Shown here: in pieces, positions 43,037-56,649 of the stretch
Layout: each line of letters begins with the position of its first letter
How positions within the stretch are numbered: the stretch's first letter is position 1
Assembly (NCBI GenBank): GCA_964393745.1
Contig: CAYMVA010000127.1
Location: 2,046-66,045, forward strand
Source: an uncultured Enterobacteriaceae bacterium
Lineage (GTDB): Bacteria > Pseudomonadota > Gammaproteobacteria > Burkholderiales > SG8-39
DNA length: 64,000 bases
Direction of reading: 5' to 3'
Notes under the pieces: generated by a model
Told to the model about the DNA's origin: nothing
Database searches by the model: none
The model's input: the letters and a program-made list of their open reading frames with translations, nothing else
Program-made: the position numbers and the translations under genes

Positions 43037-46000
43037 ATGGCGCGCCTCGGTTTCGATCTTTCATTCGAGCAGCTCTACCGGCGCGACGGCCTGGAGCGCG
43101 TGGACGCGGCGTTCCTGCAGTTCCTCGGCGAAGCCGATGCGCCGCTGCGCGATCGGCTGCTCGCGGCGCGCGCCAACCCGCAACGGCTCGCCGCCAAATC
43201 CGAATCCGATCTGCTGATCGCGCTTGCGCCGCATCTGGACGACTTTCTCGCGCGGCTGTTCGCGATCGAGGCCGAAGCGCAGGCGCTGGCCGCGCGCCAC
43301 CACAACTTCGCCCCGCTGTATTCGGTCAAGCGCCTGTTCGTGCAGCGCCGCGCCTTGCACAAGGTCAAGCCCGAGGAGGCCGCGGCGCTAGACGGCACCG
43401 CAGTGGAACAGGAACTGCGCGCGCTGTTCGACGGGCAGTTCACCGAGCTCGCGTTCGCGCGCCACGTCACCGAATGGCAGAAAGACGAGGCCGCCAATGG
43501 CGGGCGGCTCGAGCTCGCGGCGCGCTACGCGGCTTGGGCTGCGACCACGCCCGAAGGTAGGGCCAAGCACCGTGGCGGCGTGCTTTTCAAGGCGCCGCGC
43601 AAGCTCGACTACATGCGCCTGGTGCCGGTGAAAACCGACGACTCGCGCGGCTACGCGCGCCATTCGCTCGCGCACCTGCGGCGCCGCGAGGGTTTCGCGC
43701 TTACCGATCCGGGAACGGACCTCGTGGGCGCGCTCGACCAGGCGAACTACTGCATCTGGTGCCACGAGCAGGGCAAGGACTCCTGCTCCAAGGGGCTGAA
43801 AGAGAAGGCGCCGGCGACCGGCTACCGCAAGTCGCCGCTGGGGACCGCGCTCGCCGGCTGCCCGCTGGAGGAGAAGATCTCCGAGTTCCATCTGGTCAAG
43901 GCGCGCGGCCAGGCGCTCGCCGCGCTGGCGATGATCTGCGTCGATAATCCGATGGTCGCCGCCACCGGCCACCGCATCTGCAACGACTGCATGAAGGCCT
44001 GCATCTACCAGAAGCAGGAGCCGGTCGATATCCCGCAGGCGGAGACGCGGACCCTCAAGGACATACTCGGGCTGCCCTGGGGCTTCGAGATTTACTCGCT
44101 GCTCACGCGTTGGAACCCGCTCAACGTGCACCGCCCGCTGCCGTTGCCGGACACAGGCCGCAAGGTGCTGGTGGTAGGCCTCGGCCCCGCTGGCTTCACG
44201 CTGGCGCACCACTTGATGAACGACGGCCACACCGTGGTCGGCATCGACGGCCTCAAGATCGAGCCTCTGCCGGCAGCGCTCTCTGGCGTGGACGCGCTCA
44301 GCCGGCGCTTGGCGTTCGAGCCGGTGCGCGATGCGCTCGATCTCTACGAGCCGCTCGACAAGCGCGCCATGGCCGGCTTCGGCGGCGTCGCCGAGTACGG
44401 CATCCCGGTGCGCTGGGACAAGAACTTCCTCAAGCTGGTGCGGCTGCTGCTCGAGCGCCGCGCCGAGTTCGCCATGTTCGGCGGCGTGCGCTTCGGCGGC
44501 ACGCTCGCGCTCGAGGACGCCTGGGCGCTCGGCTTCGACCATGTCGCGCTATGCGTCGGTGCGGGCGGCCCCACGGTGCTCGACATTCCCAACGGCCTGG
44601 CGCGCGGCGTGCGCGCCGCCTCCGACTTCCTCATGGCGCTGCAATTGACCGGCGCGGCGAAGCAGGATTCGATCGCCAACATGCAGCTGCGCCTGCCGGT
44701 GGTGGTGATCGGCGGCGGGCTCACGGCGATCGACGCCGCCACCGAGTCGCTCGCCTACTACGTGGCGCAGGTGGAGAAATTCCTCGCGCACTACGAGGCG
44801 CTTTCGAAGGAGAGCGGCGAGGACGCGATCCGCGCCGGCTGGGACGACTACGAGCGCGAGATCGCCGAGGAATTCCTGGCGCACGCGCGCGCGATCCGCG
44901 GCGAGCGCCGGGAGGCAGCGCGCGAAGGCCACGCGCCGCGCATCGTGGAGCTGTTGCAGCACTGGGGCGGGGTGACGATCGCCTACCGCCGGCGCCTCGT
45001 GGACAGCCCCTCTTACACGCTCAACCACGAGGAGGTGGAGAAAGCGCTCGAGGAAGGCATCTGGTTCGCCGAGAACCTCGCTCCCGTCGCCGTCGATGTG
45101 GACCACTACGGCGCGGCGCGCGGCATCCGCCTCAAGCACGCGCCCAGCGGCAAGGAGCACTGGCTCCCCGCGCACACGGTGTTCGTCGCCGCGGGCACGC
45201 AGCCGAACACGGTGCTCGCGCGCGAGCACGCGACAGAGTTCACGCTGGACGGGAAGTATTTCGCCGCTTGCGACGAAGCGGGCAATCCGGTCAAGCCGCA
45301 GCCCTCCACTTCCAAGCCCGATGCGGTACGCGTGCTGCTCTCGCGGCAGGCCGACGGCCGCTGCGTCAGCTTCTTCGGTGACGTGCATCCGTCCTATTTC
45401 GGCAACGTCGTCAAGGCGATGGGCTCGGCGAAGCAGGGCTACCCAGTGGTGTCGCGCGTGCTCGGCGCGCGCGCGCCCGCAAGCAATGCGTCGCGCCAAC
45501 CATTTTTCGCCGCGCTCGCCGGCCAGCTCGTGGCGACGGTCGAGCGCGTAGAGCGCCTCACGCCTACGATCGTAGAGGTCGTGATGCGCGCGCCGCTCGC
45601 CGCACGCAAATTCCGTCCCGGCCAGTTCTACCGGCTGCAGAACTTCGAGTCGCTCGCCCCCGTGGTGCACGGCACGCGCATGCAGATGGAAGGCCTCGCC
45701 ATGACCGGCGCCTGGATGGACCGCGACCAGGGCCTGGTGTCGATCATCGCGCTCGAGATGGGCGGCTCGAGCGACCTGTGCGCGATGCTGCAGCCGGGCG
45801 AGCCGGTGATCCTGATGGGACCTACCGGCGCGCCTACCGAAACTCCCGGCGGCGAGACCGTGGTGCTGTGCGGCGGCGGGCTGGGCAACGCGGTGCTGTT
45901 CTCGATCGGCGCCGCGTTCCGCGCCGCCGGCTCGAAGGTGCTTTATTTCGCCGGCTACAAGAAGGTGCAGGACCGCTACAAGGTAAGCGAGATCGAGAAC

Positions 46001-46507
46001 GCCGCCGACGTCGTGGTCTGGTGCTGCGACGAGCAGCCCGGCTTCGAGCCGCGCCGGACGCAGGCCCTGCGCGTCATCGGCAACATCGTGCAGGCGATGG
46101 CCGCCTATGCCGCAGGGCGCCTGGGCAAGCCCGCGATCCGGCTCGAGGACGCCGACCGCATCATCGCCATCGGCTCCGACAGGATGATGGCGGCGGTGGC
46201 GCGCGCACGCCACGACCTGCTCAAGGGCCACCTCAACCCGCGCCACGTCGCCATCGGCTCGATCAATTCGCCGATGCAATGCATGATGAAGGAGATCTGC
46301 GCGCAGTGCCTGCAGCCGCACCGCGACCCGCAGACCGGCGAGACCAGCTACGTGTTCTCCTGCTTCAACCAGGACCAGCCCCTCGACCGCGTCGAGTTCG
46401 GCGTGCTGAACGATCGCCTGAAGCAGAACTCCCTCGCCGAGAAGCTCACCGCGAAGTGGCTGCGGCATTGCATGCCGGAGCTGAAGAAACAGCGTAAATT
46501 TGTGTAG
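43037..46507 (+). CDS. Large fused iron-sulfur flavoprotein: unknown N-domain + GltD/NfnB-like pyridine-nucleotide oxidoreductase + PyrK/NfnA-like FAD/NAD(P) 2Fe-2S domain
   Basis: 1156-aa ORF. Cys clusters CIWCHEQGKDSC and CNDCMKAC; two Rossmann motifs (VVGLGPAGF, VIGGGLTAID). The C-terminal ferredoxin-reductase-like part has PGQFYRL and CGGGLGNAVL, plus a terminal Cys motif CMMKEICAQC...SC. The first 230 aa or so match nothing I recognise. Confidence 0.8.
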   Translation: MARLGFDLSFEQLYRRDGLERVDAAFLQFLGEADAPLRDRLLAARANPQRLAAKSESDLLIALAPHLDDFLARLFAIEAEAQALAARHHNFAPLYSVKRLFVQRRALHKVKPEEAAALDGTAVEQELRALFDGQFTELAFARHVTEWQKDEAANGGRLELAARYAAWAATTPEGRAKHRGGVLFKAPRKLDYMRLVPVKTDDSRGYARHSLAHLRRREGFALTDPGTDLVGALDQANYCIWCHEQGKDSCSKGLKEKAPATGYRKSPLGTALAGCPLEEKISEFHLVKARGQALAALAMICVDNPMVAATGHRICNDCMKACIYQKQEPVDIPQAETRTLKDILGLPWGFEIYSLLTRWNPLNVHRPLPLPDTGRKVLVVGLGPAGFTLAHHLMNDGHTVVGIDGLKIEPLPAALSGVDALSRRLAFEPVRDALDLYEPLDKRAMAGFGGVAEYGIPVRWDKNFLKLVRLLLERRAEFAMFGGVRFGGTLALEDAWALGFDHVALCVGAGGPTVLDIPNGLARGVRAASDFLMALQLTGAAKQDSIANMQLRLPVVVIGGGLTAIDAATESLAYYVAQVEKFLAHYEALSKESGEDAIRAGWDDYEREIAEEFLAHARAIRGERREAAREGHAPRIVELLQHWGGVTIAYRRRLVDSPSYTLNHEEVEKALEEGIWFAENLAPVAVDVDHYGAARGIRLKHAPSGKEHWLPAHTVFVAAGTQPNTVLAREHATEFTLDGKYFAACDEAGNPVKPQPSTSKPDAVRVLLSRQADGRCVSFFGDVHPSYFGNVVKAMGSAKQGYPVVSRVLGARAPASNASRQPFFAALAGQLVATVERVERLTPTIVEVVMRAPLAARKFRPGQFYRLQNFESLAPVVHGTRMQMEGLAMTGAWMDRDQGLVSIIALEMGGSSDLCAMLQPGEPVILMGPTGAPTETPGGETVVLCGGGLGNAVLFSIGAAFRAAGSKVLYFAGYKKVQDRYKVSEIENAADVVVWCCDEQPGFEPRRTQALRVIGNIVQAMAAYAAGRLGKPAIRLEDADRIIAIGSDRMMAAVARARHDLLKGHLNPRHVAIGSINSPMQCMMKEICAQCLQPHRDPQTGETSYVFSCFNQDQPLDRVEFGVLNDRLKQNSLAEKLTAKWLRHCMPELKKQRKFV

Positions 46508-46528: not shown

Positions 46529-47350
46529 ATGCCCGCCTACGCCAGGCCGACCCGCGTCGATGAAGCGCTGAAAGTACTTGCGCAGGGCGGTTGCGCGGTG
46601 CTCGCCGGCGGCACCGACCACTACCCGGCGCGGGTAGGGCGCGCGCCCGACGAAGACATCCTCGACCTCACCGCGATCCGCGAGCTGCGCGGCATCGCCG
46701 AGCGGCGTGACCACTGGCGTATCGGCGCGACCACCACCTGGACGGAGGTGATCGAAGCGAAGCTGCCGCCGCTGTTCGATTGCCTGAAATATGCGGCCCG
46801 CGAAGTAGGCGGCATGCAGATCCAGAACGCGGGCACGGTGGCCGGAAATCTATGCAACGCCTCGCCCGCCGCGGACGGCGTGCCGCCGCTGCTCGCGCTG
46901 GGCGCCAGCGTAGAACTCGCCAGCATTCAACGAAAGCGCACGCTGCCGCTTGCCGAGTTCATCACCGGCCCGAGGAAAACGGCACTGCGCCCGGGCGAGC
47001 TGCTGAGCGCGGTGCTGGTGCCGAAGCCCAAGCACGCCGCTCGCAGCGGCTTCCTCAAGCTCGGCGCGCGCAAGTATCTCGTCATTTCCATCGCCATGGC
47101 GGCCGGGGTGATCGAGCGCGATGGCGGCATCGTGCGCGCGGCGCGCATCGCCGTGGGTGCGTGCTCGCCCGTGGCGAAGCGGCTACCGGCGCTCGAAGCG
47201 GCGTTGATCGGCAAGCCGCTGAGCAGCGATCTGGCGCGGCCCGAGCATCTGGCGGTGCTCGCGCCGATCGACGACGTCCGCGGCAGCGCCGGGTATCGCA
47301 GCGAAGCAGCGCTGGTGCTGGTGCGCCGATTGTTGGACGAGCTCGCATGA
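46529..47350 (+). CDS. Xanthine dehydrogenase family FAD-binding subunit (CoxM/XdhB-like)
   Basis: 273-aa ORF with FAD_binding_5-type motifs (LAGGTD, NAGTVAGNLCNASPAAD) and a C-terminal CO-dehydrogenase flavoprotein domain (DVRGSAGYR). Confidence 0.9.
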   Translation: MPAYARPTRVDEALKVLAQGGCAVLAGGTDHYPARVGRAPDEDILDLTAIRELRGIAERRDHWRIGATTTWTEVIEAKLPPLFDCLKYAAREVGGMQIQNAGTVAGNLCNASPAADGVPPLLALGASVELASIQRKRTLPLAEFITGPRKTALRPGELLSAVLVPKPKHAARSGFLKLGARKYLVISIAMAAGVIERDGGIVRAARIAVGACSPVAKRLPALEAALIGKPLSSDLARPEHLAVLAPIDDVRGSAGYRSEAALVLVRRLLDELA

Positions 47351-50091
47351 ACAAGCCTCGCGCCAAATTCCTCGCCGAGGCGGTTGCCTTCACCGTCAAC
47401 GGCCGCAAGGTGCGCGCCACTTCCGCGCGCGCCGCCCGCCTCGCCGACGTGCTGCGCGACGAGCTCGGCCTCACCGGCACCAAGATCGGCTGCAACGCCG
47501 GCGATTGCGGCGCCTGCACCGTGCTGCTCGATGGCCGCCAGGTGTGCTCGTGCCTCACCGCACTCGGCCAGGTCGAGGGCCGCGAAGTCCTGACCGTCGA
47601 AGGCCTCGCCGCGAAGGGAAAACTTTCCGACCTGCAGGCAGCGTTCCAGAACCACGGCGCTGCGCAGTGCGGCATCTGCACGCCGGCCATGCTGATCGCT
47701 GCGGCGGATCTGCTTGCGCGCAATCCGGACCCAGATGCCGCCGAGGTCCGGGACGCGCTCGGTGGCGTGCTGTGTCGCTGCACCGGCTACCAGAAGATCG
47801 TAGAGGCCGTGCTGGCGGCAAAGTGTAAAGTCACACTTTACACTTTGCCCGCTGCAGGCCGGGCGGTCGGGGCGCGCGCCGGCAAGGTGGACGGCATTGC
47901 CAAGCTCAATGGCACCGAGCGCTACGGCGCCGATGCGATCCCGGCGGACGCGCTCTGGCTGCGCGTCATGCGCTCGCCGCACCATCGCGCGCGCTTCCGC
48001 TTCGGCAACCTCGACGCCTGGCGCCGCGGCCTGCCGGGCATCGAGCGGCTGCTCACCGCTGCCGATGTGCCCTCGAACGGCTTCGGCATCTATCCGCACA
48101 TCAAGGACCAGCCGGTGCTCGCCGCAGGCGAAGCGCGTTTCCGCGGCGAAGCGGTGGCCGCGGTGATCGGCAGCCGCGAAGCGATCGAGCGGCTCGATGC
48201 GAATGCTTTCCCGGTGAGCTGGGAGCCGCTCGAACCGGTGCTAGGCCTCGATGCGGCGATGGCGCCCAAAGCGCCGCGCGTTCAGCCAAACAAACCGGAC
48301 AACTTGCTGCTCGATGGCGGCGTGAGGAAAGGCGATCCCGCCTCCGCATGGGCGCAATGCGCAGCGATCGCGGAGGCGAGCTTCGAGACCGCGTTTGTTG
48401 AGCATGCCTACATCGAGCCCGAAGCCGGCTGGGCGCGGCGCGTCGGCCACCGGATCGAGATCCATGTCTCCACGCAGACGCCTTACATGGACCGCGACGA
48501 GACCGCGCTGGTGATGAAGCTCGAGCCCGAGCAGGTGCGGATCGTGCCGAGCGCGTGCGGCGGCGGCTTCGGCGGCAAGCTCGACATGGCGGTGCAGCCG
48601 CTTATCGCGCTCGGCGCCTGGCTCACGCGCAAGCCCGTCGCCTGCGTGTACACGCGTCCCGAGAGCATGGCTTCGAGCACCAAGCGCCACCCGGCGCGCA
48701 TCCACGCCAAGTTCGGCTGCGATGAGCGCGGGCGATTGCTCGCCTGCGAAATGGATGCGCTCTTCGACACCGGCGCCTACGCTAGCTGGGGTCCGACGGT
48801 CGCGACGCGGGTCCCGATCCACGCCACCGGCCCCTACCTCGTGCCGCACGTAAAGACGCGCGGTCGCGCCTACTTCACGCATTGCCATCCGTCGGGCGCG
48901 TTCCGCGGCTTCGGCGTGCCGCAGGGCGCGATCGCGCACGAAGCGCTCATGGATGAGCTCGCCGACGGCATCGGCATGGACCGGCTCGAGTTCCGGCGCG
49001 TGAACGCGCTCAAAGCGGGTGACGCCACCGCCACCGGCCAGGTGCTCGAGCATTCCGCCGGGCTCGCCGAGTGCCTCGATGCGCTCGAGCCGCATTGGCG
49101 CCGCGCCAGGCGCGAGTGCGAAACGTTCAATGCGAAGCACGCGACGCGCAAGCGCGGCGCCGGCATCGGCTGCATGTGGTACGGCATCGGCAACACCTCG
49201 CTTTCCAACCCTTCGACGATACGCGCCGCCATCCGGCCCGACTGTAAAGTCACGCTTTACAGTGGCGCGGTGGACATCGGCCAGGGCTGCAGCACCACCC
49301 TCACCCAGGTGTGCGCCGATGCGCTCGGCCTGCCGATGCAGGATTTCCACCTCGTCATGGGCGATACCGATCTCACGGCCGACGCGGGCAAGACCTCTGC
49401 CTCGCGCCAAGCCTTCGTCTCGGGCAAGGCGGCCGAGCTCGCGGGGCTGGATCTGCGTCAGAAACTCTTCGCCGCCGCCGGCGCTCCGAACGGCGCATGG
49501 CGCGACCGCGACTACCGGCTCTCGCTCGAAGGCGGCAAGCTGGTGTTCCGCAAAGGTGGCATCACCCATCGCGTGAAGCTGCGCGAGCAATTGATAGGTG
49601 AAGGCTACTTCGATCCTCCGACCAAGCCCTCGGACGCCGACGGACAGGGCGTTCCCTACGCCACTTATGCGTTCGCCGCGCAGGTCGCCGTGGTCGAGGT
49701 GGATCTCGAACTGGGCACCACCAAGGTGCTGCGCATCCACGCCGCGCACGATGTCGGCCGCGCGCTCAACCCGATCCAGGTCGAGGGCCAGATCCAGGGC
49801 GGCGCGGCGCAAGGACTCGGCATGGCGCTAATGGAGGAGTACGTTCCAGGCAAGACCGAGAACCTGCACGACTACCTGATCCCGACCATCGGCGACATGC
49901 CGCAATTCGATTGCATCCTGGTGGAGGACCCCGAGCCGCTCGGTCCCTACGGCGCCAAGGGCGTTGGCGAGCCGGGGTTGATTCCGACCGCGCCGGCGAT
50001 CCTCGGTGCGATCGAGCACGCCACCGGCGTGCGCATGCGCCGCGTACCCGTGCTGCCGCATCGCTTATTGGCAGCGCTGAAAGCCAAATGA
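47347..50091 (+). CDS. Fused [2Fe-2S] + molybdopterin-binding hydroxylase subunit (xanthine dehydrogenase / aldehyde oxidoreductase family)
   Basis: ATG 47347 overlaps the upstream stop (ATGA). The N-terminal part carries two 2Fe-2S motifs (CNAGDCGACTV, CGICTPAM...CRCTGY). A linker of about 12 aa is encoded by a palindromic repeat, followed by a MoCo domain (..GGGFGGK.., ..DIGQG..). About 914 aa as read in this sequence. Confidence 0.85.
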   Translation: MNKPRAKFLAEAVAFTVNGRKVRATSARAARLADVLRDELGLTGTKIGCNAGDCGACTVLLDGRQVCSCLTALGQVEGREVLTVEGLAAKGKLSDLQAAFQNHGAAQCGICTPAMLIAAADLLARNPDPDAAEVRDALGGVLCRCTGYQKIVEAVLAAKCKVTLYTLPAAGRAVGARAGKVDGIAKLNGTERYGADAIPADALWLRVMRSPHHRARFRFGNLDAWRRGLPGIERLLTAADVPSNGFGIYPHIKDQPVLAAGEARFRGEAVAAVIGSREAIERLDANAFPVSWEPLEPVLGLDAAMAPKAPRVQPNKPDNLLLDGGVRKGDPASAWAQCAAIAEASFETAFVEHAYIEPEAGWARRVGHRIEIHVSTQTPYMDRDETALVMKLEPEQVRIVPSACGGGFGGKLDMAVQPLIALGAWLTRKPVACVYTRPESMASSTKRHPARIHAKFGCDERGRLLACEMDALFDTGAYASWGPTVATRVPIHATGPYLVPHVKTRGRAYFTHCHPSGAFRGFGVPQGAIAHEALMDELADGIGMDRLEFRRVNALKAGDATATGQVLEHSAGLAECLDALEPHWRRARRECETFNAKHATRKRGAGIGCMWYGIGNTSLSNPSTIRAAIRPDCKVTLYSGAVDIGQGCSTTLTQVCADALGLPMQDFHLVMGDTDLTADAGKTSASRQAFVSGKAAELAGLDLRQKLFAAAGAPNGAWRDRDYRLSLEGGKLVFRKGGITHRVKLREQLIGEGYFDPPTKPSDADGQGVPYATYAFAAQVAVVEVDLELGTTKVLRIHAAHDVGRALNPIQVEGQIQGGAAQGLGMALMEEYVPGKTENLHDYLIPTIGDMPQFDCILVEDPEPLGPYGAKGVGEPGLIPTAPAILGAIEHATGVRMRRVPVLPHRLLAALKAK
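47821..47855. repeat. 35-nt AT-rich palindromic junction element, copy A (inside the 2Fe-2S/MoCo linker)
   Basis: aagTGTAAAGTcacACTTTACActttgcccgctgc has 9-bp perfect arms (47823..47843). It is 32/35 identical to 60717..60751. Confidence 0.85.
49242..49262. repeat. Related 21-nt perfect palindrome inside the MoCo-domain coding sequence
   Basis: CTGTAAAG-tcacg-CTTTACAG. The core tgtaaagtcacNctttaca differs from copy A at one position and encodes the same CKVTLY peptide. Confidence 0.8.
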
Positions 50092-51581
50092 GCAACCCGC
50101 TCGACGCACGAGATCCGGAAGACGCACTGGCGCCGGATAGCGGCACGCTCGGCGGCGACGTCATCCGCTGCGACGCCTGCCCGGTGCTGTGCCGCATTCG
50201 CAAGGGGCAAAGCGGCGCCTGCGACCGCTACGCCAACGAGAACGGCAAACTGGTGCGCCTCGACCCGCTGCTGATCCTTCAGCGTGGCAGCGCGGCGGTG
50301 CCGTTCCTCGAGCCCGGCAAGCCTTGGGACGGCAAGCTGATCTCCGCGTCGAACACCTTCGTCACCGGGGTCGGCGCAACCACCACCTACCCCGACTACA
50401 AACCCGCGCCGTTCATCGTCGCCTCTAAATTCGAAGGCGTGGACGTGGTGACGGTGGTCACCGAGGGGATTTTTTCCTACTGCGGCCTGAAGGTGAAGAT
50501 CGACACCGACCGCTTTCTCGGCCCCGAGCAGGCGGCGGTGCGCGTCGCAGGCGAGCAGATCGGGCACGTCACCACCGCGGAATACGGCTCGCAGATGCTG
50601 TCGCTCGGCGGCGTGCGCCACCTCACCGGCGGCTCGAAGAAGGAAGGCACGGTCACCTGCGAGGCGCTGCTCAAGCTCTCCAATAAGGAGGCGGTAGAAC
50701 TGCAGGTGGACGGCGGCACCACAGTGCGGGTGCAGGCGGGCGAGGCGCCGGTGGTGAATGGCGCACACGAGGCGCGCATGCGGGTGGGCTGCGGCAGCGC
50801 CACCATCGGTATCTTCGCCAAGCAGTGGCACGGCCATGCCGACGAGGTGATCGTAGTGGACGACCACATCACCGGCGTGCTCACCGAGCACCAAGCCGGG
50901 CGTTTCCTCGACATGCGGCCGGCCGGTATCCGCGTGCGCGGCCGCAAGTCCACGCCGGGGCGCTATTTCAAGGTCGCCGAGCCAGGCATGGGCTGGGGCG
51001 GCACCGACATCACCGATCCGCTCGCGATCGTGGAGAAAATAGATCCCAAAACCGCCTGGCCGGGAATGCGTCTGCTGATGGTCTCGACTACCGGCGAGGA
51101 CGCCGAATGGTTCGTGCTCGACGAAGCGCTCAAGCCGCGGAAAGCGCCGATGCCCGAGCCGGTGCGCAAAGTGGTGGAGCGCATCGCGGAGAACTGCGAG
51201 CCGGCGCTGTGCACGGTGCTGTTCATGGGCGGCGCCGGCGGCTCGCTGCGCGCCGGCGTGACCGAGAACCCGGTGCGCCTTACGCGCTCGGTGAAGGAAC
51301 TGATCACGCGCGTCACCTGCGGCGGTGCGCCGGTTTACGTCTGGCCCGGCGGCGGCATCACCGTGATGGTGGACGTGCTGCGCATGCCGGAGCGCTCTTT
51401 CGGCTACGTGCCGACGCCCGCGCTGGTGCTGCCGATCGAATTCACGCTGCCGCTCGCTGCCTATGGCGCGATGGGCGGGCATATGGATCGCGTCGTTACA
51501 CTGGACGAGGCGCTGCGCCGCGCCGAGTTCAAGTCGGAGCCCTGGCGCGAAGCAAATCCCTGGCCCGTAGGCAAAGCATGA
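50088..51581 (+). CDS. 6-hydroxynicotinate-reductase-like Fe-S protein (family assignment from memory, unverified)
   Basis: ATG 50088 overlaps the upstream stop (ATGA). About 497 aa with an N-terminal Cys cluster CDACPVLCRIRKGQSGAC. I recognise the sequence type as the family usually annotated 6-hydroxynicotinate reductase, commonly paired with a UPF0280 gene. Confidence 0.6.
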   Translation: MSNPLDARDPEDALAPDSGTLGGDVIRCDACPVLCRIRKGQSGACDRYANENGKLVRLDPLLILQRGSAAVPFLEPGKPWDGKLISASNTFVTGVGATTTYPDYKPAPFIVASKFEGVDVVTVVTEGIFSYCGLKVKIDTDRFLGPEQAAVRVAGEQIGHVTTAEYGSQMLSLGGVRHLTGGSKKEGTVTCEALLKLSNKEAVELQVDGGTTVRVQAGEAPVVNGAHEARMRVGCGSATIGIFAKQWHGHADEVIVVDDHITGVLTEHQAGRFLDMRPAGIRVRGRKSTPGRYFKVAEPGMGWGGTDITDPLAIVEKIDPKTAWPGMRLLMVSTTGEDAEWFVLDEALKPRKAPMPEPVRKVVERIAENCEPALCTVLFMGGAGGSLRAGVTENPVRLTRSVKELITRVTCGGAPVYVWPGGGITVMVDVLRMPERSFGYVPTPALVLPIEFTLPLAAYGAMGGHMDRVVTLDEALRRAEFKSEPWREANPWPVGKA

Positions 51582-52435
51582 GTGGTCCCGTCCACGCAAT
51601 CCTCCCCGGCGGCCGGCTGCACCTGCAGCACGGTCCCATCGACTTGGTGATCGAAGCCTGGGGTGAGCAGCACGAGGTCGCCACCGCCTACGAGCAGGCG
51701 TGGCAGCACTTTCACGACATCCTGGGGACGCTGGTCGCGGAGTTGCCGCTTCTGCGCGCGGCGGTCGGTGCGGCCTATCCGCTCGCGCGCGGGCCAGTGG
51801 CGCGCCGCATGGTCGCGGCGGTCTGGCCGCTCCGCGAAGTGTTCATCACGCCGATGGCGGCGGTCGCCGGCAGCGTCGCCGACGAAATTCTCGCCGCGCT
51901 GTGCGCGGGTAGGCGCCTCGACAAGGCATTTGTGAACGACGGCGGCGACATCGCGCTGCATCTCGCGCCGCATCAACGCCTCGATACCGGGATCGTGGCC
52001 GATCCGCGCCGTCCCATGCTCTGCGGCAGCGTGTGCGTGGAGGCGAGCGACCCGGTGCGCGGCATCGCCACCTCCGGTTGGCGTGGGCGCTCGCAGTCGC
52101 TCGGCATCGCCGACGCCGTGACCGTGCTCGCGCGCAGCGCGGCGATGGCCGACGCCGCCGCGACGCTGGTCGCCAACGCGGTCAACGCAGAGCACCCGGC
52201 GATCCGCCGGCTGCCGGCGCGGCAAGTCAAGGAGGACAGCGACCTCGGCGAGCTGCCGGTGACCGTCGCGGTCGGGCCCCTGCCGCCCGGGATGGCGGAG
52301 GCTGCGCTAGACTCTGGCTTGAGAGTTGCCGAGGCGCTCAGGGGGCGCGGACTGCTGCACACCGCTTTCCTGTCGCTGCAGCAGCAAACGCAAGTGCTTA
52401 GGATGAGCAACCTTCCGCTCACCGTTCAGAACTGA
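51578..52435 (+). CDS. UPF0280 family protein (ApbE-like fold)
   Basis: ATG 51578 overlaps the upstream stop (ATGA). About 285 aa with the ITPMAAVAGSVADEI motif typical of the UPF0280/ApbE-like superfamily. Confidence 0.7.
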   Translation: MSGPVHAILPGGRLHLQHGPIDLVIEAWGEQHEVATAYEQAWQHFHDILGTLVAELPLLRAAVGAAYPLARGPVARRMVAAVWPLREVFITPMAAVAGSVADEILAALCAGRRLDKAFVNDGGDIALHLAPHQRLDTGIVADPRRPMLCGSVCVEASDPVRGIATSGWRGRSQSLGIADAVTVLARSAAMADAAATLVANAVNAEHPAIRRLPARQVKEDSDLGELPVTVAVGPLPPGMAEAALDSGLRVAEALRGRGLLHTAFLSLQQQTQVLRMSNLPLTVQN

Positions 52436-52448
52436 AAGGAGCCCGACC

Positions 52449-53165
52449 ATGCAACTGAGCCGACGTGATTCCCTCAAAGTGCTGGCGGCGCTCGCCGCCG
52501 CCGGCGCCCTGCCCTCCATCGCCCAGGCAGCCAAGCTCAAGCCGGGCGCCGACTCGGTGCTGATCGTGGTGGACGTGCAGAACTGCTTCGTCACCGGCGG
52601 CACGTTGCCGGTGAAGGAAGGCGAGCAGGTGGTGCCGCTCATTAACAAGCTGGCGAAAATCTTCCAGAACGTGGTCATCACCCAGGACTGGCACACAGCC
52701 GGGCACGTTTCGTTCGCTTCGGCGCACGCCGGCAAGAAGCCTTTCGAGACTACCAAGCTCAGCTACGGCACGCAGGTGCTGTGGCCGGACCACTGCGTCC
52801 AGGGCACGCCCGATGCAGCGCTGCACAAGGACCTCGAAATCCCGCACGCGCAGCTGGTCATTCGCAAGGGCTATCACAAAAGCACCGACAGCTACTCCGG
52901 TTTCGTGGAAGCCGATCGCAAGACGCAGACGGGGCTTGCCGCCTACCTCAAGGCGCGCGGCATCAAGCAGTGCTACGTCACCGGCCTGGCGACCGATTTC
53001 TGCGTCGCCTGGACCGCGCTCGATGCGCGCAAGGCCGGATTCAAGGCGGCAGTGATCGAGGATGCGTGCCGCGGCATCGATTTGCAGGGCTCGCTCGCCA
53101 AGGCCTGGGCGACGATGAAGGTGGCGGGCGTGCAGCGCCTGCAGTCGGCCGAGCTGCTCGGTTGA
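52449..53165 (+). CDS. pncA: Nicotinamidase/pyrazinamidase with a twin-arginine signal peptide
   Basis: 238-aa ORF collinear with E. coli PncA. It has the catalytic Asp (VVDVQNCF), the metal site QDWHTAGHVSF, WPDHCVQ and the catalytic Cys (GLATDFCV). The N-terminus MQLSRRDSLKVLAALAAAGALPSIAQA fits a Tat signal. Confidence 0.9.
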   Translation: MQLSRRDSLKVLAALAAAGALPSIAQAAKLKPGADSVLIVVDVQNCFVTGGTLPVKEGEQVVPLINKLAKIFQNVVITQDWHTAGHVSFASAHAGKKPFETTKLSYGTQVLWPDHCVQGTPDAALHKDLEIPHAQLVIRKGYHKSTDSYSGFVEADRKTQTGLAAYLKARGIKQCYVTGLATDFCVAWTALDARKAGFKAAVIEDACRGIDLQGSLAKAWATMKVAGVQRLQSAELLG

Positions 53166-53569
53166 GAGCGCTCGCCGCCGCGCTGCTTTTTCTTGCCAGC
53201 GCCTGCGCGCTCGCCGGCGGCAAGGTCGAGGTGATCTACCTCGGCACCAACGACTGCCCCTACTGCCGCCACTGGGAGGCGGCGCGCAAGCCCGAGTTGC
53301 TCTCCTCGCCCGAAGGCAAGGCGGCGAGCTACCGCGAGGTGCGCGGCGAAACGCTGCGCAAACCGATTGACGCGGCGCACTACCCTGCCGACCTCAAGTG
53401 GGTGGCCGAGCAGATCGGGCCGAGCCGCGGCGTGCCGCGCTTCGTGCTCGTGGTGGACGGCAAGGTGGTGATGAACGTGATGGGCACCGAGGCTTACCAG
53501 CAGGCGTTCCTGCCCGCGCTCAGGCGGGCGGTCGCGGACACAAGTTCAACCGGAGGAGGAAAACAATGA
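53162..53569 (+). CDS. Small secreted thioredoxin/glutaredoxin-fold protein (CPYC active site)
   Basis: TTG 53162 overlaps the pncA stop, giving (M)RALAAALLFLASACALAGG.. (signal peptide), then YLGTNDCPYCRHW and a cis-Pro-like GVPRFVL. The start codon is inferred, as there is no in-frame ATG before the signal peptide. Confidence 0.6.
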   Translation: MRALAAALLFLASACALAGGKVEVIYLGTNDCPYCRHWEAARKPELLSSPEGKAASYREVRGETLRKPIDAAHYPADLKWVAEQIGPSRGVPRFVLVVDGKVVMNVMGTEAYQQAFLPALRRAVADTSSTGGGKQ

Positions 53570-54753
53570 AACTGCGCACTCTCGCCGCGTTCGCCGCGGC
53601 CGCAACGGTCTCGTTCGGCGCCCAGGCGCAGGCGATCAAGATCGGCGAGCTGAACAGCTACAAGGTGTTCCCTGCGTTCCTCGAGCCCTACAAAAAGGGC
53701 TGGGAGCTGGCGCTTGAGGAGATCAACAAGTCGGGCGGCGCCGCGGGCAAAAAGCTCGAAGTGGTGTCGCGCGAGGACGGCGGCAACCCGGGCGACGCGG
53801 TGCGCGTCGCCGAGGAACTGATCACGCGCGAGAACGTGTCGCTCCTCATGGGCACCTTCGCGTCGAACATCGGCCTCGCGGTCTCCAACCTCGCCAACCA
53901 GAGAAAGATCGTGTTCATCGCCGCCGAGCCGCTCACCGACAAGATCGTGTGGGACAACGGCAACCGCTACACCTTTCGGCTGCGGCCCTCGACCTACATG
54001 CAGGTGGCGATGCTGATCCCGGAGGCGGCGAAGCTCAAAAAGCAGCGCTGGGCGATCGTCTACCCCAACTACGAGTACGGCCAGTCGGCCACCGCTTCGT
54101 TCAAGAAGCTGCTCACTAAAGCGCAGCCCGGCGTGCAGTTCGTGGGCGAGCAGGCTCCGGCGCTTGGCAAGATCGAGGCCGGCGCCGTGGTGCAGGCGCT
54201 GGCGGACCTCAAGCCCGACGCCATCTTCTCGTCGCTCTTCGGCGCCGACCTGCAGAAGTTCGTGCGCGAAGGCAACCTGCGGGGGCTATTCAAGGACCGG
54301 CCGGTATTCAACCTGCTCGCCGGCGAGCCCGAGTACCTCGATCCGCTCAAGGACGAGACCCCGGACGGCTGGTACGTCACCGGCTATCCCTGGAACGAGA
54401 TCAAGACCGCAGCGCACCAGAAATTCCTCGCCGCCTACCAGGCCAAATACAAGGACTACCCGCGCCTGGGCTCGATCGTAGGCTACTCGACCATGTATAC
54501 GGTGGCGAACGTGATCAAGCGCGCCGGCGGCGCCGACACCGAGAAGCTGATTGCGGCGATGAAAGGCATGGAGATGGACACCCCGATCGGCCCGATCGTG
54601 TGGCGCGCGGTCGACAACCAGTCCACCATGGGCGCGTACGTCGGCCGGCTGGCGAAAAAGGACGGCAAGGGCGTGATGGTCAACTGGCGCTTCGCCGACG
54701 GGGCCCTGTTCCTGCCGCCCTTCGAGGAAGTCCGGGCAATGCGGAAGGACTAA
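53566..54753 (+). CDS. ABC transporter periplasmic substrate-binding protein (Leu/Ile/Val-binding, Peripla_BP_6-like)
   Basis: ATG 53566 overlaps the upstream stop. Signal peptide MKLRTLAAFAAAATVSFGAQAQA followed by IKIGELNS... Confidence 0.88.
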   Translation: MKLRTLAAFAAAATVSFGAQAQAIKIGELNSYKVFPAFLEPYKKGWELALEEINKSGGAAGKKLEVVSREDGGNPGDAVRVAEELITRENVSLLMGTFASNIGLAVSNLANQRKIVFIAAEPLTDKIVWDNGNRYTFRLRPSTYMQVAMLIPEAAKLKKQRWAIVYPNYEYGQSATASFKKLLTKAQPGVQFVGEQAPALGKIEAGAVVQALADLKPDAIFSSLFGADLQKFVREGNLRGLFKDRPVFNLLAGEPEYLDPLKDETPDGWYVTGYPWNEIKTAAHQKFLAAYQAKYKDYPRLGSIVGYSTMYTVANVIKRAGGADTEKLIAAMKGMEMDTPIGPIVWRAVDNQSTMGAYVGRLAKKDGKGVMVNWRFADGALFLPPFEEVRAMRKD

Positions 54754-54816: not shown

Positions 54817-56649
54817 ATGACTTCCGTATCTATCCTCATCCAGTTTCTGAATGGCCTGGCGAGCGCCTCGTCGCTCTTCTTGGTCGCGGCCGGCCTATCG
54901 CTCATCTTTGGCGTCACCCGGATCGTCAACTTCGCCCACGGCTCGCTCTACATGCTGGGCATGTACGTGGCCGTAACCCTGGCGGACAAGATCGGCTTCT
55001 GGTGGAGCGTGCCGCTTGCCGCGCTCGCGGTGGCGGCCTTCGGCGCGCTGGTCGAGGCGCTGCTGCTGCGCAGGCTGTACGGCGCCCCGGAGTTGCTGCA
55101 GTTGCTCGCCACCTTCGCGCTGGTGCTGGTGGTGAAGGACTTCTCCCTCTGGCAATGGGGGCCGGAGGACATCCTCGGCCCCCGGGCGCCGGGCCTGAAC
55201 CAAGCGGTGACGATCGCGGGCATCCAATTCCCCGAATACGACTTGTTCCTGATCGCCTTCGGGCCGCTGGTGCTGGGCGCGCTGTGGCTGCTGCTCACGC
55301 GCACGCGCTGGGGAACCTTGGTGCGCGCAGCGACCCAGGACCGCGAAATGGCGGGCGCGCTCGGCGTCAACCAGCGATGGCTATTCACAGGCGTGTTCGC
55401 GCTCGGCGCGCTGCTCGCCGGGCTGGGCGGCGCGCTGCAGATCCCGCGCGAGCCGGCGACGCTGCTGATCGATCTCTCGGTGGTGTCCGATGCGTTCGTG
55501 GTGGTGGTGGTCGGGGGCCTCGGCTCCATCCCCGGCGCCTTCGTCGCCGCGCTGCTGATCGCGGAGATCAAGGCGTTCTGCATCGGGCTGGGATTCTCCA
55601 AGCTCACGCTAGTGGCCGAGTTCATCGTCATGGCGGTGGTGCTGGTGATCCGCCCATGGGGGCTGCTCGGCCGCATGCCGGCGCAGGCGCGCGGCCCCGG
55701 CGCCGTGGAACGGCCGCTCGCCCCGCCCTCGCCGCGCATGCTGGGCGCGCTCGCGGCGCTGGCGCTCGCCCTCGCACTGATTCCGCTGCTCACGGCGGGA
55801 TACACGCTGGTGCTGATGACCGACATTCTGGTGTTCGCGCTGTTCGCCGTCAGCCTGCACTTCATCATGGGGCCCGCTGGGCTGCACTCCTTCGGCCACG
55901 CGGCGTATTTCGGCCTCGGCGCCTACGGCGCGGGACTGCTGCTGATCCGCGGCGGCGCGCCGATGGAACTCTCGCTCGTGCTCGCGCCGCTGCTGGGCGG
56001 CCTGGGCGCACTCGTCTTCGGCTGGTTCTGCGTGCGACTGTCGGGCGTGTATCTCGCCATGCTGACGCTCGCGTTTGCGCAGATCGCCTGGTCGGTGGTG
56101 TTCCAGTGGGATGCGTTCACCGGCGGCTCGAACGGCCTGGTCGGCGTCTGGCCGGCGAAATGGCTCGCCTCCAAAACCGCCTACTACTACCTGACGCTCG
56201 CGGGCTGCGTCGCAGGCATCGCATTGCTGTGGCGCGCGCTCTACGCGCCCTTCGGCTACGCGCTGCGCGCGGCGCGCGATTCGCCGCTGCGCGCCGACGC
56301 CATCGGCATGGACGTGCGCCGCCTGCAGTGGGCCGCGTTCACCTTCGCCGGCCTGTTCGCGGGCGTGGCCGGCGCGCTGTACGCGTTTTCCAAGGGATCG
56401 ATCTCGCCCGAGTCCATGTCGGTGCCGCGCTCGGTGGACGGGCTGGTGATGGTGCTGCTCGGCGGCGTCCAGACGCTCACCGGCGCGGTGTGGGGCGCGG
56501 CGCTCTTTACCTGGCTGCAGGACGTGGTGGCGCGCTCGATCGATTACTGGCGCGCGGTGCTCGGCATCGTGATCTTGGTGCTGGTGCTTGTCTTCCCACA
56601 GGGAGTGACCGGTTTCATCGCCGAGCGCCTGGAGGCGCGCCGCGAATGA
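54817..56649 (+). CDS. Branched-chain-type ABC transporter permease, fused LivH-like + LivM-like halves
   Basis: 610-aa polytopic ORF. The first half resembles LivH (..NFAHGSLYMLGMY..) and the second half LivM (..HSFGHAAYFGLGAYGAG..). Confidence 0.88.
   Translation: MTSVSILIQFLNGLASASSLFLVAAGLSLIFGVTRIVNFAHGSLYMLGMYVAVTLADKIGFWWSVPLAALAVAAFGALVEALLLRRLYGAPELLQLLATFALVLVVKDFSLWQWGPEDILGPRAPGLNQAVTIAGIQFPEYDLFLIAFGPLVLGALWLLLTRTRWGTLVRAATQDREMAGALGVNQRWLFTGVFALGALLAGLGGALQIPREPATLLIDLSVVSDAFVVVVVGGLGSIPGAFVAALLIAEIKAFCIGLGFSKLTLVAEFIVMAVVLVIRPWGLLGRMPAQARGPGAVERPLAPPSPRMLGALAALALALALIPLLTAGYTLVLMTDILVFALFAVSLHFIMGPAGLHSFGHAAYFGLGAYGAGLLLIRGGAPMELSLVLAPLLGGLGALVFGWFCVRLSGVYLAMLTLAFAQIAWSVVFQWDAFTGGSNGLVGVWPAKWLASKTAYYYLTLAGCVAGIALLWRALYAPFGYALRAARDSPLRADAIGMDVRRLQWAAFTFAGLFAGVAGALYAFSKGSISPESMSVPRSVDGLVMVLLGGVQTLTGAVWGAALFTWLQDVVARSIDYWRAVLGIVILVLVLVFPQGVTGFIAERLEARRE

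Follow-up and report, generated by a model that had tools for sequence, protein, structure and literature searches.

Gene content and extent of the locus

The 64-kb window (the whole stretch of DNA that was analysed) carries an operon running on the plus strand from 43037 to at least 63485, about twice the length of the six-gene unit described in the initial annotation. Its genes and the one flanking it are as follows.

42217..42978, minus strand: SDR-family oxidoreductase (Pfam adh_short), divergent from the operon, given for context only
43037..46507, plus strand: fused Nfn-like flavoprotein, 1156 aa (Pfam Pyr_redox_2, Fer4_20)
46529..47350, plus strand: NdhF-like FAD-binding subunit (Pfam FAD_binding_5, CO_deh_flav_C)
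47347..50091, plus strand: fused 2Fe-2S and molybdopterin subunit (Pfam Fer2, Fer2_2, Ald_Xan_dh_C, MoCoBD_1, MoCoBD_2)
50088..51581, plus strand: 6-hydroxynicotinate reductase (Hnr) homologue, 497 aa (similarity to E. barkeri-type Hnr)
51578..52435, plus strand: UPF0280 protein of the ApbE superfamily (NCBIfam NF003322)
52449..53165, plus strand: Tat-exported nicotinamidase PncA (NCBIfam NF008623)
53162..53569, plus strand: exported protein with a CPYC (thioredoxin) motif, 135 aa, its TTG start overlapping the pncA stop
53566..54753, plus strand: periplasmic substrate-binding protein of an ABC importer (Pfam Peripla_BP_6)
54817..56649, plus strand: fused double permease, LivH/LivM type (Pfam BPD_transp_2, two stretches)
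56646..57398, plus strand: ABC ATPase 1 (Pfam ABC_tran, BCA_ABC_TP_C)
57391..58092, plus strand: ABC ATPase 2 (Pfam ABC_tran)
58141..58718, plus strand: Phd/YefM antitoxin and ParE toxin pair (Pfam PhdYeFM_antitox, ParE_toxin)
58715..60724, plus strand: HyuA-type subunit of an ATP-dependent lactamase (Pfam Hydant_A_N, Hydantoinase_A, Hydant_A_C)
60766..62502, plus strand: HyuB-type subunit of the same lactamase (Pfam Hydantoinase_B)
62499..63485, plus strand: second substrate-binding protein, PF04392 type (Pfam ABC_sub_bind)

The six coding sequences first reported, from the FAD subunit to the CPYC protein, are all present on the plus strand and chained as described: ATGA overlaps join them at 47347, 50088, 51578 and 53566, and the fifth junction, between the pncA stop and the start of the CPYC gene at 53162, is TTGA. 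The single gap of 13 nt (52436-52448) also stands, and it carries an aaggag Shine-Dalgarno sequence upstream of pncA. Because the fifth junction is TTGA, the CPYC gene would start on TTG, a start weaker than those at the other junctions but plausible, since no other in-frame start would retain the signal peptide that 4/4 homologues possess. Together with the homologies described below, the overlaps support the original proposal of an operon whose genes are translated together and act on a nicotinate-type N-heterocycle.

The limit of six genes did not hold, as the same-strand chain extends both ways. Upstream lies the gene for the Nfn-like flavoprotein, separated from the FAD-subunit gene by 21 nt; downstream lie a five-gene ABC importer, the Phd/ParE cassette, hyuA and hyuB, and the gene for the second binding protein. 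By ending the operon too early, the earlier reading missed hyuAB, the importer and the flavoprotein. The ABC genes occupy 53566-58092, and among them the permease and ATPase 1 genes overlap by an ATGA at 56646; at 58715 another ATGA joins the end of parE to the hyuA start, and a GTGA overlap at 62499 couples hyuB to the second binding-protein gene. No intergenic terminator-like site stands out (12 found, against a chance expectation of 11.6). The Phd/ParE cassette is an insertion within the operon and outside the pathway: no such pair lies between ATPase 2 and hyuA in three closely related loci (L001, L002, L005). In these three closest loci, and in no others, the divergent SDR gene has a counterpart at the matching position, with about 80% identity; a part for it in the pathway, for instance on 2-formylglutarate, would be speculative.

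Hydroxylase, reductase and UPF0280 protein

Pfam and NCBIfam agree with the initial annotation on an FAD subunit followed by a fused 2Fe-2S/molybdenum hydroxylase, and its closest characterised relative is the nicotinate dehydrogenase (Ndh) of E. barkeri. The FAD subunit shares 31% identity with the NdhF encoded in an E. barkeri-type cluster. The fused subunit combines in one chain what the E. barkeri-type enzyme carries as separate NdhS, NdhL and NdhM chains, to which it is 45%, 38% and 40% identical, respectively; its best structural relative is PDB 3HRD (627 bits summed over the split chains, versus 394 for the next structure). It is a predicted nicotinate dehydrogenase, converting nicotinate to 6-hydroxynicotinate. 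This specificity is taken from the neighbouring genes only, because the fused molybdenum subunit falls below every NCBIfam equivalog cut-off; in NCBIfam the hydroxylase scores best against models of the xanthine dehydrogenase or aldehyde oxidoreductase type.

The next protein, on whose kinship with authentic Hnr the earlier reading had been staked, proved to be a true homologue: aligned with the Hnr encoded on an E. barkeri-type contig, it shows 42% identity across 447 aa (E 3e-101). That contig is tied to E. barkeri by its enamidase, which shares 97% identity with the crystallised E. barkeri enzyme (PDB 2VUN). Six Hnr cysteines are invariant (C28, C31, C35, C45, C235 and C370). The 497-aa sequence matched no Pfam or NCBIfam model, and its AF2 model (pLDDT 82) found no fold match in the PDB. 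We predict that it converts 6-hydroxynicotinate to 6-oxo-1,4,5,6-tetrahydronicotinate (THON). Unlike the characterised enzyme, it has no N-terminal 2x[4Fe-4S] ferredoxin domain, and there is no ferredoxin gene within the cluster.

Its electrons could come from the upstream Nfn-like flavoprotein or from the Mo-hydroxylase itself. The flavoprotein joins a GltD/NfnB-like FeS and FAD part to a PyrK/NfnA-like FAD and 2Fe-2S part; it scores 786 bits against NCBIfam PRK06567, under the cut-off of 1072, and its best PDB matches are the large and small subunits of P. furiosus NfnI and T. maritima NfnAB. It is a possible low-potential donor to Hnr, by a weak link: among 82 related proteobacterial loci its gene is cluster-linked only in the five closest betaproteobacterial ones, and the linkage may be mere synteny, because unrelated genes intervene between it and the cluster in two loci (L003, L006).

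The UPF0280 assignment is secure (NF003322, 379 bits, cut-off 290). The protein is 30% identical to the product of the gene following hnr in one Firmicute cluster (L085), and its gene adjoins hnr in 75/82 proteobacterial loci and directly follows it in 3/3 Firmicute clusters (L085, L086, L087), an order common to E. barkeri-type, Clostridium and Negativicutes clusters. The gene set is therefore canonical at this point, and not non-canonical as had been suggested. We infer that UPF0280 is probably an ApbE-like flavin transferase that matures Hnr. ApbE is the only Pfam family that UPF0280 members match repeatedly (weakly, in 18 of 26, best E 2e-6), a newer Pfam model for the family is named AbpE_bact, and the adjacency to hnr is kept across phyla. 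The E. barkeri Hnr reportedly carries a covalently bound flavin, which also counts in favour of a transferase.

We lean against, but take seriously, the alternative that UPF0280 instead serves Hnr as a structural subunit or as a chaperone for some cofactor, FeS or otherwise, with any covalent Hnr flavin attached autocatalytically. The operon's own UPF0280 matches Pfam ApbE too weakly to reach the curated cut-off (E 0.022), and in a PDB profile search its only structural relative was the uncharacterised 2O34; structure prediction gave no reliable model of it (pLDDT 38). Moreover, the conserved Hnr loop T93-x-x-G-A-x-T99 differs from the classical ApbE target motif, and UPF0280 subfamilies (other PRK04334 sub-models) occur in organisms without Hnr.

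Nicotinamidase, CPYC protein and importer

The call of a clear, exported PncA was borne out by Pfam, by the NCBIfam equivalog (191 bits, cut-off 174) and by a Tat-type signal (SRRDSLK...AQA) at the N-terminus; 6/7 cluster-linked PncA homologues have a twin-arginine signal. As a conserved neighbourhood, the proposed trio of Hnr, UPF0280 and pncA held for the first two genes but not for pncA, which is linked to the cluster in only six of the 82 loci. The CPYC protein matched nothing in Pfam or NCBIfam, and its signal peptide and CPYC motif are kept in L001, L002/L007 and L005. Orthologues of the importer's binding protein, 53-86% identical, occur in 32/82 loci. Nicotinate is the predicted substrate of this importer, whose proteobacterial counterpart has been called a putative nicotinate ABC transporter (PMC3511419).

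Enamidase and its proposed replacement, HyuAB, at the third step

As the initial annotation stated, enamidase is absent, and this extends throughout the 64-kb window. Its claim that the operon matches neither known route fares less well: Ndh, Hnr and UPF0280 form a front end identical in kind to that of the E. barkeri/Azorhizobium route, and only the third step differs, the canonical cluster opening the ring with enamidase whereas the operon has HyuAB. HyuA and HyuB belong to the caprolactamase/N-methylhydantoinase/5-oxoprolinase family. HyuA matches caprolactamase alpha best (487 bits) and HyuB scores 319 bits against caprolactamase beta, each under a cut-off of 1000; in the PDB, HyuA matches 7HK5 and 6YRA, and HyuB matches 6YRA_B. 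The closest characterised relatives of the pair are lactam-opening enzymes, not carboxylases.

Among related loci, 20 carry enamidase orthologues (E 1.6e-108 to 2VUN) and 32 carry HyuAB (29 once duplicate contigs are dropped), and at no threshold does any locus carry both. Within the 47 loci with full flanks, 22 have HyuAB, 16 enamidase, none both and nine neither within 10 kb (Fisher p = 1.4e-6 for the either/or split, uncorrected for shared ancestry). The two types of locus interleave on the Hnr tree, and in both the Hnr is 66-83% identical to the operon's, so the Hnr substrate is probably the same in both. HyuAB therefore appears, from this distribution, to be an enamidase replacement and the predicted opener of the THON ring, with HyuA as its alpha subunit.

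We consider it reasonably probable that the operon serves nicotinamide/nicotinate catabolism by an E. barkeri/Azorhizobium-type route, hydroxylating and then reducing the ring, with one step replaced. In this scheme, whose substrates are all inferred, exported PncA would hydrolyse nicotinamide to nicotinate and NH3 in the periplasm, and the Liv-type ABC system would bring the nicotinate in. Ndh (the FAD subunit and the fused FeS/Mo subunit) would then yield 6-hydroxynicotinate, which Hnr would reduce to THON after activation by the UPF0280/ApbE-like protein, probably by covalent attachment of a flavin. Finally, HyuA/HyuB would open the six-membered THON lactam in an ATP-dependent reaction to 2-formylglutarate and ammonia, the job of enamidase in the canonical cluster.

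It is unlikely that, behind the same front end, HyuAB and the second binding protein form an unrelated adjoining module for hydantoin, 5-oxoproline or another lactam, THON being opened by an enzyme encoded elsewhere. The family acts on many substrates, and both of the operon's subunits score far under all equivalog cut-offs; translational coupling ties hyuB to a binding-protein gene with no counterpart in other related loci, and the toxin-antitoxin cassette stands between hyuA and the ABC genes. In L002/L007 the place of hyuB after hyuA is taken by a DUF4286-like gene and a GGDEF gene in reverse orientation, and the nine full-flank loci with neither enzyme nearby imply that the gene for the third step may lie outside the cluster. 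Against this, a HyuA orthologue of 59-79% identity is encoded on the same strand as hnr in 29/29 loci from Alpha- and Betaproteobacteria, in eight of them directly after UPF0280; HyuAB is found in none of the 20 enamidase-carrying loci, and chance synteny would not readily produce the interleaving on the Hnr tree. We doubt even more that the cluster degrades some other N-heterocycle (a pyridine carboxylate, a pyridone or a purine- or pyrimidine-like compound), with Hnr and Ndh shifted in specificity and HyuAB fitted to another lactam: the modest Ndh identities (38-45%), hydroxylase scores under all equivalog cut-offs with best matches of other types, the ferredoxin-less Hnr and the minority linkage of PncA would suit it, but the similar Hnr occurs alongside a clear enamidase orthologue in enamidase-type loci, the amidase, when linked, is specifically the PncA equivalog, and nicotinate and 6-hydroxynicotinate each support growth of a Bradyrhizobiaceae strain that carries an enamidase-type cluster (PMC3511419).

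Reports from 2006 and 2012 had already drawn attention to the cluster in Proteobacteria, as a conserved set that covers steps one to three and includes an ABC transporter together with two conserved genes of unknown function (PMC3511419, citing Alhapel 2006). What is new in the nicotinate-type operon described here is the third step, at which HyuAB appears to stand in place of enamidase.

Organization and extent of the operon

The initial annotation described six + strand coding sequences between 46529 and 53569 as a translationally coupled unit. All six are present, and Pfam and NCBIfam agree with its calls of the FAD subunit, the fused 2Fe-2S/MoCo subunit, PncA and UPF0280. The chain of overlaps likewise holds, with ATGA at four junctions (47347, 50088, 51578 and 53566), TTGA at a fifth (53162), and a 13-nt spacer carrying an aaggag Shine-Dalgarno sequence before pncA. 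The operon reaches further in both directions than these six genes.

Features of the operon and of the block upstream
31348-41621, - strand: housekeeping block (infB, nusA, rimP, pseudouridine synthase, scpB, scpA, trpS, M50-like peptidase, Sua5/YrdC protein, alpha/beta hydrolase)
43037-46507, + strand: 1156-aa flavoprotein gene, ending 21 nt before the FAD-subunit gene
46529-47350, + strand: FAD subunit gene (Pfam and NCBIfam)
47347-50091, + strand: fused 2Fe-2S/MoCo subunit gene (Pfam and NCBIfam)
50088-51581, + strand: hnr, gene of the 497-aa protein (no Pfam or NCBIfam model)
51578-52435, + strand: UPF0280 gene (NF003322 (PRK04334.1-2), 379 bits vs a cut-off of 290)
52449-53165, + strand: pncA (NF008623, 191.4 bits over residues 36-233 vs an equivalog cut-off of 174)
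53162-53569, + strand: gene of the 135-aa CPYC protein (no Pfam or NCBIfam model)
53566-58092, + strand: Peripla_BP_6 binding protein, fused double permease and two ABC ATPases, with ATGA at 56646
58141-58718: Phd/ParE toxin-antitoxin pair, between ABC ATPase 2 and hyuA
58715-60724, + strand: hyuA, its ATG overlapping the parE stop
60766-62502, + strand: hyuB (Hydantoinase_B, Pfam)
start overlapping the hyuB stop: second binding-protein gene, the last of the operon

The TTGA at 53162 places the start of the CPYC gene at a TTG codon, which is supported indirectly, since it is the only in-frame start that preserves the signal peptide found in all four loci having this protein. Terminator-like sites between genes of the operon were not above chance (12 vs 11.6 expected), promoter and tRNA scans of the operon gave nothing exceeding chance, and an Rfam scan found no family within it.

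The housekeeping block directly upstream places the catabolic operon in the core chromosome rather than on any obvious island. Three clustered tRNA genes (His-GTG, Arg-TCT, Pro-TGG) lie at 26629-26897 on the - strand. At the other end, a gene beginning MNRFLAAIFALLLPFAAAAQYPNKPIRLIVPFPPGG (63532-64000) runs past the end of the window; it may encode a Bug/TctC-type binding protein of a tripartite tricarboxylate transporter, a family that is very expanded in Burkholderiales, which would fit a betaproteobacterial source.

The Phd/YefM-ParE cassette (58093-58718) interrupts the operon between ABC ATPase 2 and hyuA, which directly adjoin in the closest related hnr loci (L001, L002 and L005). Its parE stop and the hyuA start share an ATGA at 58715, a perfect palindrome of operator-like look (TGACCA-taattc-TGGTCA, 58105-58122) lies just 5' of phd, and the GC content of the region is locally slightly lower (0.64). 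An AT-rich perfect hairpin, AAGTGTAAAGT-gag-ACTTTACACTT, extends across the hyuA stop codon (60717-60741) in the 41-nt spacer between hyuA and hyuB; L001 and L002 have a DUF4286-like gene of about 210 aa at this position instead. In L002/L007 (18250-21521), from the MAG of an 'uncultured Bordetella sp.', the gene after hyuA is the DUF4286-like one, next comes a GGDEF gene in reverse orientation, and hyuB is not adjacent.

Relation to known nicotinate pathways

Eubacterium barkeri is not among the names of ten representatives, at 50% clustering, of the 6-hydroxynicotinate reductase (Hnr) family. The reference for our comparisons was reached through the enamidase orthologue of related loci: the sequence of the crystallized E. 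barkeri enamidase (PDB 2VUN), rebuilt from the printed PDB alignment, led to a protein 97% identical to it and thereby to the 20-kb contig that encodes this protein (L085). The contig carries genes for a LysR regulator, a 499-aa Hnr that has Fer4 domains, an AbpE_bact/UPF0280 protein whose gene overlaps the hnr stop, an Hgd-type dehydrogenase, the nicotinate dehydrogenase (Ndh) subunits NdhF, NdhS, NdhL and NdhM, enamidase and AA_synth. It also encodes a transporter, a B12 mutase, a PrpF isomerase and the rest of the downstream functions. The E. barkeri nicotinate fermentation cluster reportedly comprises NdhFSLM, Hnr, enamidase (Ena), Hgd and others, and L085 carries this textbook cluster. 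A fragment 98% identical to the L085 Hnr bears the NCBI name 6-hydroxynicotinate reductase, from a Eubacterium sp.

Identity of window proteins to those of the E. barkeri-type cluster L085
497-aa protein to Hnr: 42% over 447 residues, E 3e-101
UPF0280 to the product of the gene after hnr: 30%, E 1e-27
FAD part to NdhF: 31%
FeS part to NdhS: 45%
Mo part to NdhL: 38%
Mo part to NdhM: 40%

The initial annotation had placed the 497-aa protein with 6-hydroxynicotinate reductases and noted that its reading would fall if no similarity to authentic Hnr existed; the identity to the L085 enzyme therefore removes that doubt. The hydroxylase parts are 31-45% identical to those of Ndh. The same 42% identity was reported earlier for the Hnr homologue of a Bradyrhizobiaceae strain (PMC3511419). 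In a PDB search with the window Mo-hydroxylase, the three chains of E. barkeri nicotinate dehydrogenase (3HRD) sum to 627 bits, while the best single-chain match is the D. gigas aldehyde oxidoreductase at 394 bits.

The window Hnr has no counterpart of the N-terminal ferredoxin domain (2x[4Fe-4S], about 60 residues) of the E. barkeri-type enzyme of L085, the alignment beginning at residue 25 of the former and at residue 65 of the latter; Fer4 domains were found only in Firmicute-type and other relatives of about 510 aa. It retains an invariant C-x2-C-x3-C-x9-C (C28, C31, C35, C45) together with C235 and C370. At 50% clustering the family counts about 1,270 representatives, and roughly 600 or more genomes carry hnr, yet it has neither a Pfam nor an NCBIfam model. 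A sequence search of the PDB gave no match at E <= 1, and a confident AlphaFold model built on 68 sequences (pLDDT 82, pTM 0.80) found no PDB match below E 0.15 with Foldseek.

Besides the Ndh-type hydroxylase and Hnr, the window shares with the Firmicute clusters (L085, L086 and L087) the position of UPF0280 after hnr. Unlike them, it has no enamidase, AA_synth (PF06684), Hgd, B12 mutase, Mii or Dmd genes, its NdhS, L and M counterparts are fused in one chain, and its transporter is an ABC system instead of a PTS_EIIC_2 or MFS protein. Its additions are the lactamase-type pair HyuA and HyuB (HyuAB), an exported PncA, the CPYC protein and the gene of the 1156-aa, Nfn-like flavoprotein.

Further counterparts are the proteobacterial 'nicotinate degradation clusters' of Azorhizobium caulinodans ORS571, Bradyrhizobium japonicum USDA110, Rhodopseudomonas palustris HaA2 and Bradyrhizobiaceae SG-6C, which are described as coding for the first three steps, enamidase included (PMC3511419, Fig. 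4). By their published description they share with the window the Ndh and Hnr core, the type of ABC transporter and a conserved unknown, UPF0280 (PMC3511419). The window and 28 other loci, unlike these published clusters, have HyuAB in place of enamidase, and AA_synth is absent from the window's clade. Loci of the enamidase type encode a similar Hnr, 72-74% identical to that of the window in, for example, Bosea (L015 and L044).

The aerobic nic route of Pseudomonas putida and Bordetella (NicAB, NicC, NicX, NicD, NicF, NicE) likewise begins with a Mo-hydroxylase that yields 6-hydroxynicotinate, but the window has a ring reductase where that route has NicC and NicX. A Pfam scan of the genes from 31.3 to 63.5 kb found no domain of the NicC-type flavin monooxygenase or the NicX-type dioxygenase, as the initial annotation had said, and tblastn of the whole 64-kb window with the 2VUN orthologue (E <= 1e-8) bore out its statement that enamidase is absent. 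Its wider verdict, that the genes match neither known route, stands for these absences but not for Ndh, Hnr and UPF0280: the window operon represents the first part of the E. barkeri/Azorhizobium-type nicotinate route, and the literature already contains proteobacterial versions of it.

Conservation of the neighborhood was assessed in 80 loci with 10-kb flanks, taken from one genome per species, mainly of Alphaproteobacteria with some Betaproteobacteria, whose Hnr is 66-80% identical to that of the window, the best matches, at about 80%, being betaproteobacterial MAGs; four metagenomic loci were added. Every window protein was compared with the related loci by tblastn. UPF0280 adjoins hnr in 75/82 proteobacterial loci, and the FAD and Mo subunits lie 5' of hnr in 62 and 69 loci, respectively. 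The ABC binding protein is linked in 32 loci, HyuA in 28 and HyuB in 20. Of the proposed trio of Hnr-like protein, UPF0280 and PncA, the first two thus form a conserved pair, but PncA is linked in only 6 loci. Clustering of the remaining ORFs gave three recurrent extras: AA_synth in 45 loci, a MarR regulator in 36, and an amidohydrolase in 20, which is orthologous to enamidase over its full length (E 1.6e-108 to 2VUN). All three Firmicute clusters combine Ena, Hnr, UPF0280 and AA_synth, and UPF0280, which follows hnr directly in each of them, is therefore part of the canonical set; to this extent the 'non-canonical gene set' of the initial annotation has to be given up. One alphaproteobacterial group (Methylobacterium, Phreatobacter, Bosea and others; L067-L069, L073, L074, L077, L079, L080, L082 and L083) has a MarR-family gene in a gap of about 500 bp between hnr and UPF0280, which breaks the otherwise tight pairing there.

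The ring-opening step: enamidase or HyuAB

Of the loci whose flanks reach at least 9 kb on either side of hnr (47, counting the window), 22 have HyuAB only, 16 have enamidase only, 9 have neither and none has both (Fisher's exact p = 1.4e-6 for the exclusion, a statistic that ignores shared phylogeny). With thresholds removed, no enamidase-like match appeared at E <= 1e-8 in any of 32 Hyu loci, and no Hyu match in any of 20 Ena loci. In all 29 non-duplicate loci that have it, hyuA lies on the hnr strand, 0.9-7.2 kb away, and in eight loci it comes right after UPF0280. Isolates of Methylobacterium, Falsiroseomonas, Reyranella and Desertibaculum (L069, L079, L066, L078, L010 and L008) are among the carriers of the HyuAB type. 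On a neighbor-joining tree of Hnr the two types intermingle: for example, L017 (Ena) lies next to L063 (Hyu), L013 (Hyu) next to L022 and L046 (both Ena), and the Bosea loci L015 and L044 (Ena) within a Hyu-rich clade. The switch between enamidase and HyuAB has therefore occurred several times, with Hnr remaining similar.

Pfam places the products of the adjacent hyuA and hyuB genes in the wider HyuA/HyuB family (Hydant_A_N 1e-52, Hydantoinase_A 8e-93, Hydantoinase_B 1e-162). Their best PDB and NCBIfam matches, and closest characterized relatives, are the caprolactamase CapAB of Pseudomonas jessenii (PDB 6YRA) and N-methylhydantoinase (PDB 7HK5), which, like ATP-dependent 5-oxoprolinase, share with the window pair the two-subunit HyuA/HyuB architecture; acetone and acetophenone carboxylases score lower. 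The window pair differs from caprolactamase in its context, nicotinate catabolism, and in its scores against the caprolactamase NCBIfam models (487 bits for HyuA and 319 for HyuB), which are less than half of the equivalog cut-off of 1000 for each subunit.

Enzymes of the HyuAB type open unactivated 5- to 7-membered cyclic amides at the cost of ATP, and 6-oxo-1,4,5,6-tetrahydronicotinate (THON) is a six-membered lactam. The ATP-driven ring opening performed by caprolactamase, N-methylhydantoinase and 5-oxoprolinase is the chemistry needed for THON, and the simplest reading of the exclusion is that an ATP-dependent lactamase acting on THON has taken the place of enamidase, a THON amidohydrolase to which it is not orthologous. 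HyuAB is predicted to open THON, a prediction that we favor, if narrowly. Our literature search found no paper linking hydantoinase, oxoprolinase or caprolactamase with hydroxynicotinate.

AA_synth accompanies enamidase in 16/16 full-flank proteobacterial loci and 3/3 Firmicute loci (seen, e.g., in L015, L021-L024, L032, L036 and L085-L087), and HyuAB in 12 of 22 full-flank loci; within the window it has no match. Its strict association with enamidase, as against only about half of the HyuAB loci, suggests that AA_synth works with enamidase or on the enamidase product.

UPF0280, electron supply and the predicted route

The UPF0280 protein appears to be a distant member of the superfamily of ApbE FAD:protein FMN transferases, and it is paired with a flavoprotein. 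Weak matches to Pfam ApbE (PF02424) occur in 18 of 26 UPF0280 sequences (best E 2e-6), and no other Pfam family recurs among the 26; the window protein itself scores 14.7 bits (E 0.022), below the gathering cut-off of 25.6. The precomputed Pfam label of the family is AbpE_bact. A profile search of the PDB returned its sole solved sequence relative, the uncharacterized 2O34, and no ApbE entry. UPF0280 also differs from ApbE in being cytoplasmic, with no signal peptide.

The E. barkeri Hnr, the characterized homologue of UPF0280's partner, reportedly binds its flavin covalently and contains one [2Fe-2S] cluster as well as two [4Fe-4S] clusters. The attachment of this flavin would be explained by a dedicated transferase of the ApbE type encoded next to hnr in every phylum, and UPF0280 is accordingly predicted to flavinylate Hnr, a proposal for which we see the case as evenly balanced. 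Unlike ApbE clients, Hnr lacks both an FMN_bind domain and the classical [S/T]GA[S/T] motif. The Hnr alignment offers a candidate acceptor, as a lead only, in the conserved loop T93-x-x-G96-A-[G/T]-T99-x-Y-P, whose position 99 is T or S in 66/68 sequences; T99 and T93 would be the foremost candidate residues. This loop could not be equated with the classical ApbE acceptor motif, from which T-x-x-G-A-[GT]-T differs; it reads GAT in proteobacterial and GAG in Firmicute forms. The literature search found no paper tying ApbE to hydroxynicotinate. In L001, a single 397-aa ORF (11434-12627) is called across UPF0280 and the CPYC protein, with no stop between them, although the CPYC part retains a Met and a signal peptide of its own; either read-through or an artefact of gene calling could be the cause.

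How a Hnr that has lost its ferredoxin domain would receive electrons can be outlined in two ways. The 1156-aa protein resembles a fusion of NfnB and NfnA, the parts of the NADH-dependent ferredoxin:NADP oxidoreductase (PDB 5JCA, chains L and S; 4YLF), combining both modules in one chain, at weak similarity (E about 1e-10 to 1e-6); it has an extra N-terminal domain, RP005_N, and scores below the PRK06567 cut-off. It could supply low-potential electrons to Hnr, although we regard this link as weak. The idea that its gene belongs to the core of the system was rejected: only 5/82 loci show linkage, all of them from the closest betaproteobacterial relatives, and in L003 and L006 unrelated genes intervene. 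The alternative, which is speculative, is that Ndh passes electrons directly to Hnr. Given that the ferredoxin domain is lost and that the Mo-subunit gene and hnr are tightly coupled, electrons from nicotinate hydroxylation might go straight to the reduction of 6-hydroxynicotinate, and such passage might make the conversion of nicotinate to THON redox-neutral. No ferredoxin gene was found within the cluster in any locus examined, nor in the gaps that separate hnr from the Mo-subunit gene and from UPF0280 in related loci, some of which hold a MarR gene.

For PncA, the call of an exported nicotinamidase is upheld by its NF008623 score and by a predicted twin-arginine signal (MQLSRRDSLKVLAALAAAGALPSIAQA) within an added N-terminal stretch of 30-35 residues. 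Such signals are present in 6 of 7 cluster-linked PncA homologues; PncA therefore probably acts on nicotinamide outside the cytoplasm, and the ABC system would then import the resulting nicotinate. The CPYC protein is not strictly tied to PncA, as L001 has the former without the latter.

Taken together, we consider it likely that the operon serves the use of nicotinamide and nicotinate via 6-hydroxynicotinate and THON. The full combination, in which HyuAB is an ATP-dependent THON lactamase that displaced enamidase several times in Alpha- and Betaproteobacteria and UPF0280 is a dedicated cytoplasmic ApbE-like transferase for Hnr, is tentative and on balance doubtful; the client of this transferase has a fold with no solved relative, and its acceptor site would, just as tentatively, differ from the classical FMN_bind motif.

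As vitamins and as metabolites of plants or soil, nicotinate and nicotinamide are abundant. To our knowledge, genetic evidence for the reductive route through THON comes only from one anaerobe and, by comparison of clusters, from a few Alphaproteobacteria. Should HyuAB be the ring opener, about half of the sampled proteobacterial clusters use an ATP-spending step that is missing from pathway databases, so that annotation pipelines would miss or mis-call the pathway. Such a lactamase would represent a non-orthologous replacement inside a vitamin-degradation pathway and a new physiological substrate for the HyuAB family, a natural six-membered lactam for enzymes of biotechnological interest (caprolactam, valerolactam). 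Finally, the strict pairing of hnr with UPF0280 across phyla provides a handle for giving a UPF family a function, and flavin transfer by UPF0280, if true, would account for how the covalent flavin is installed on Hnr.
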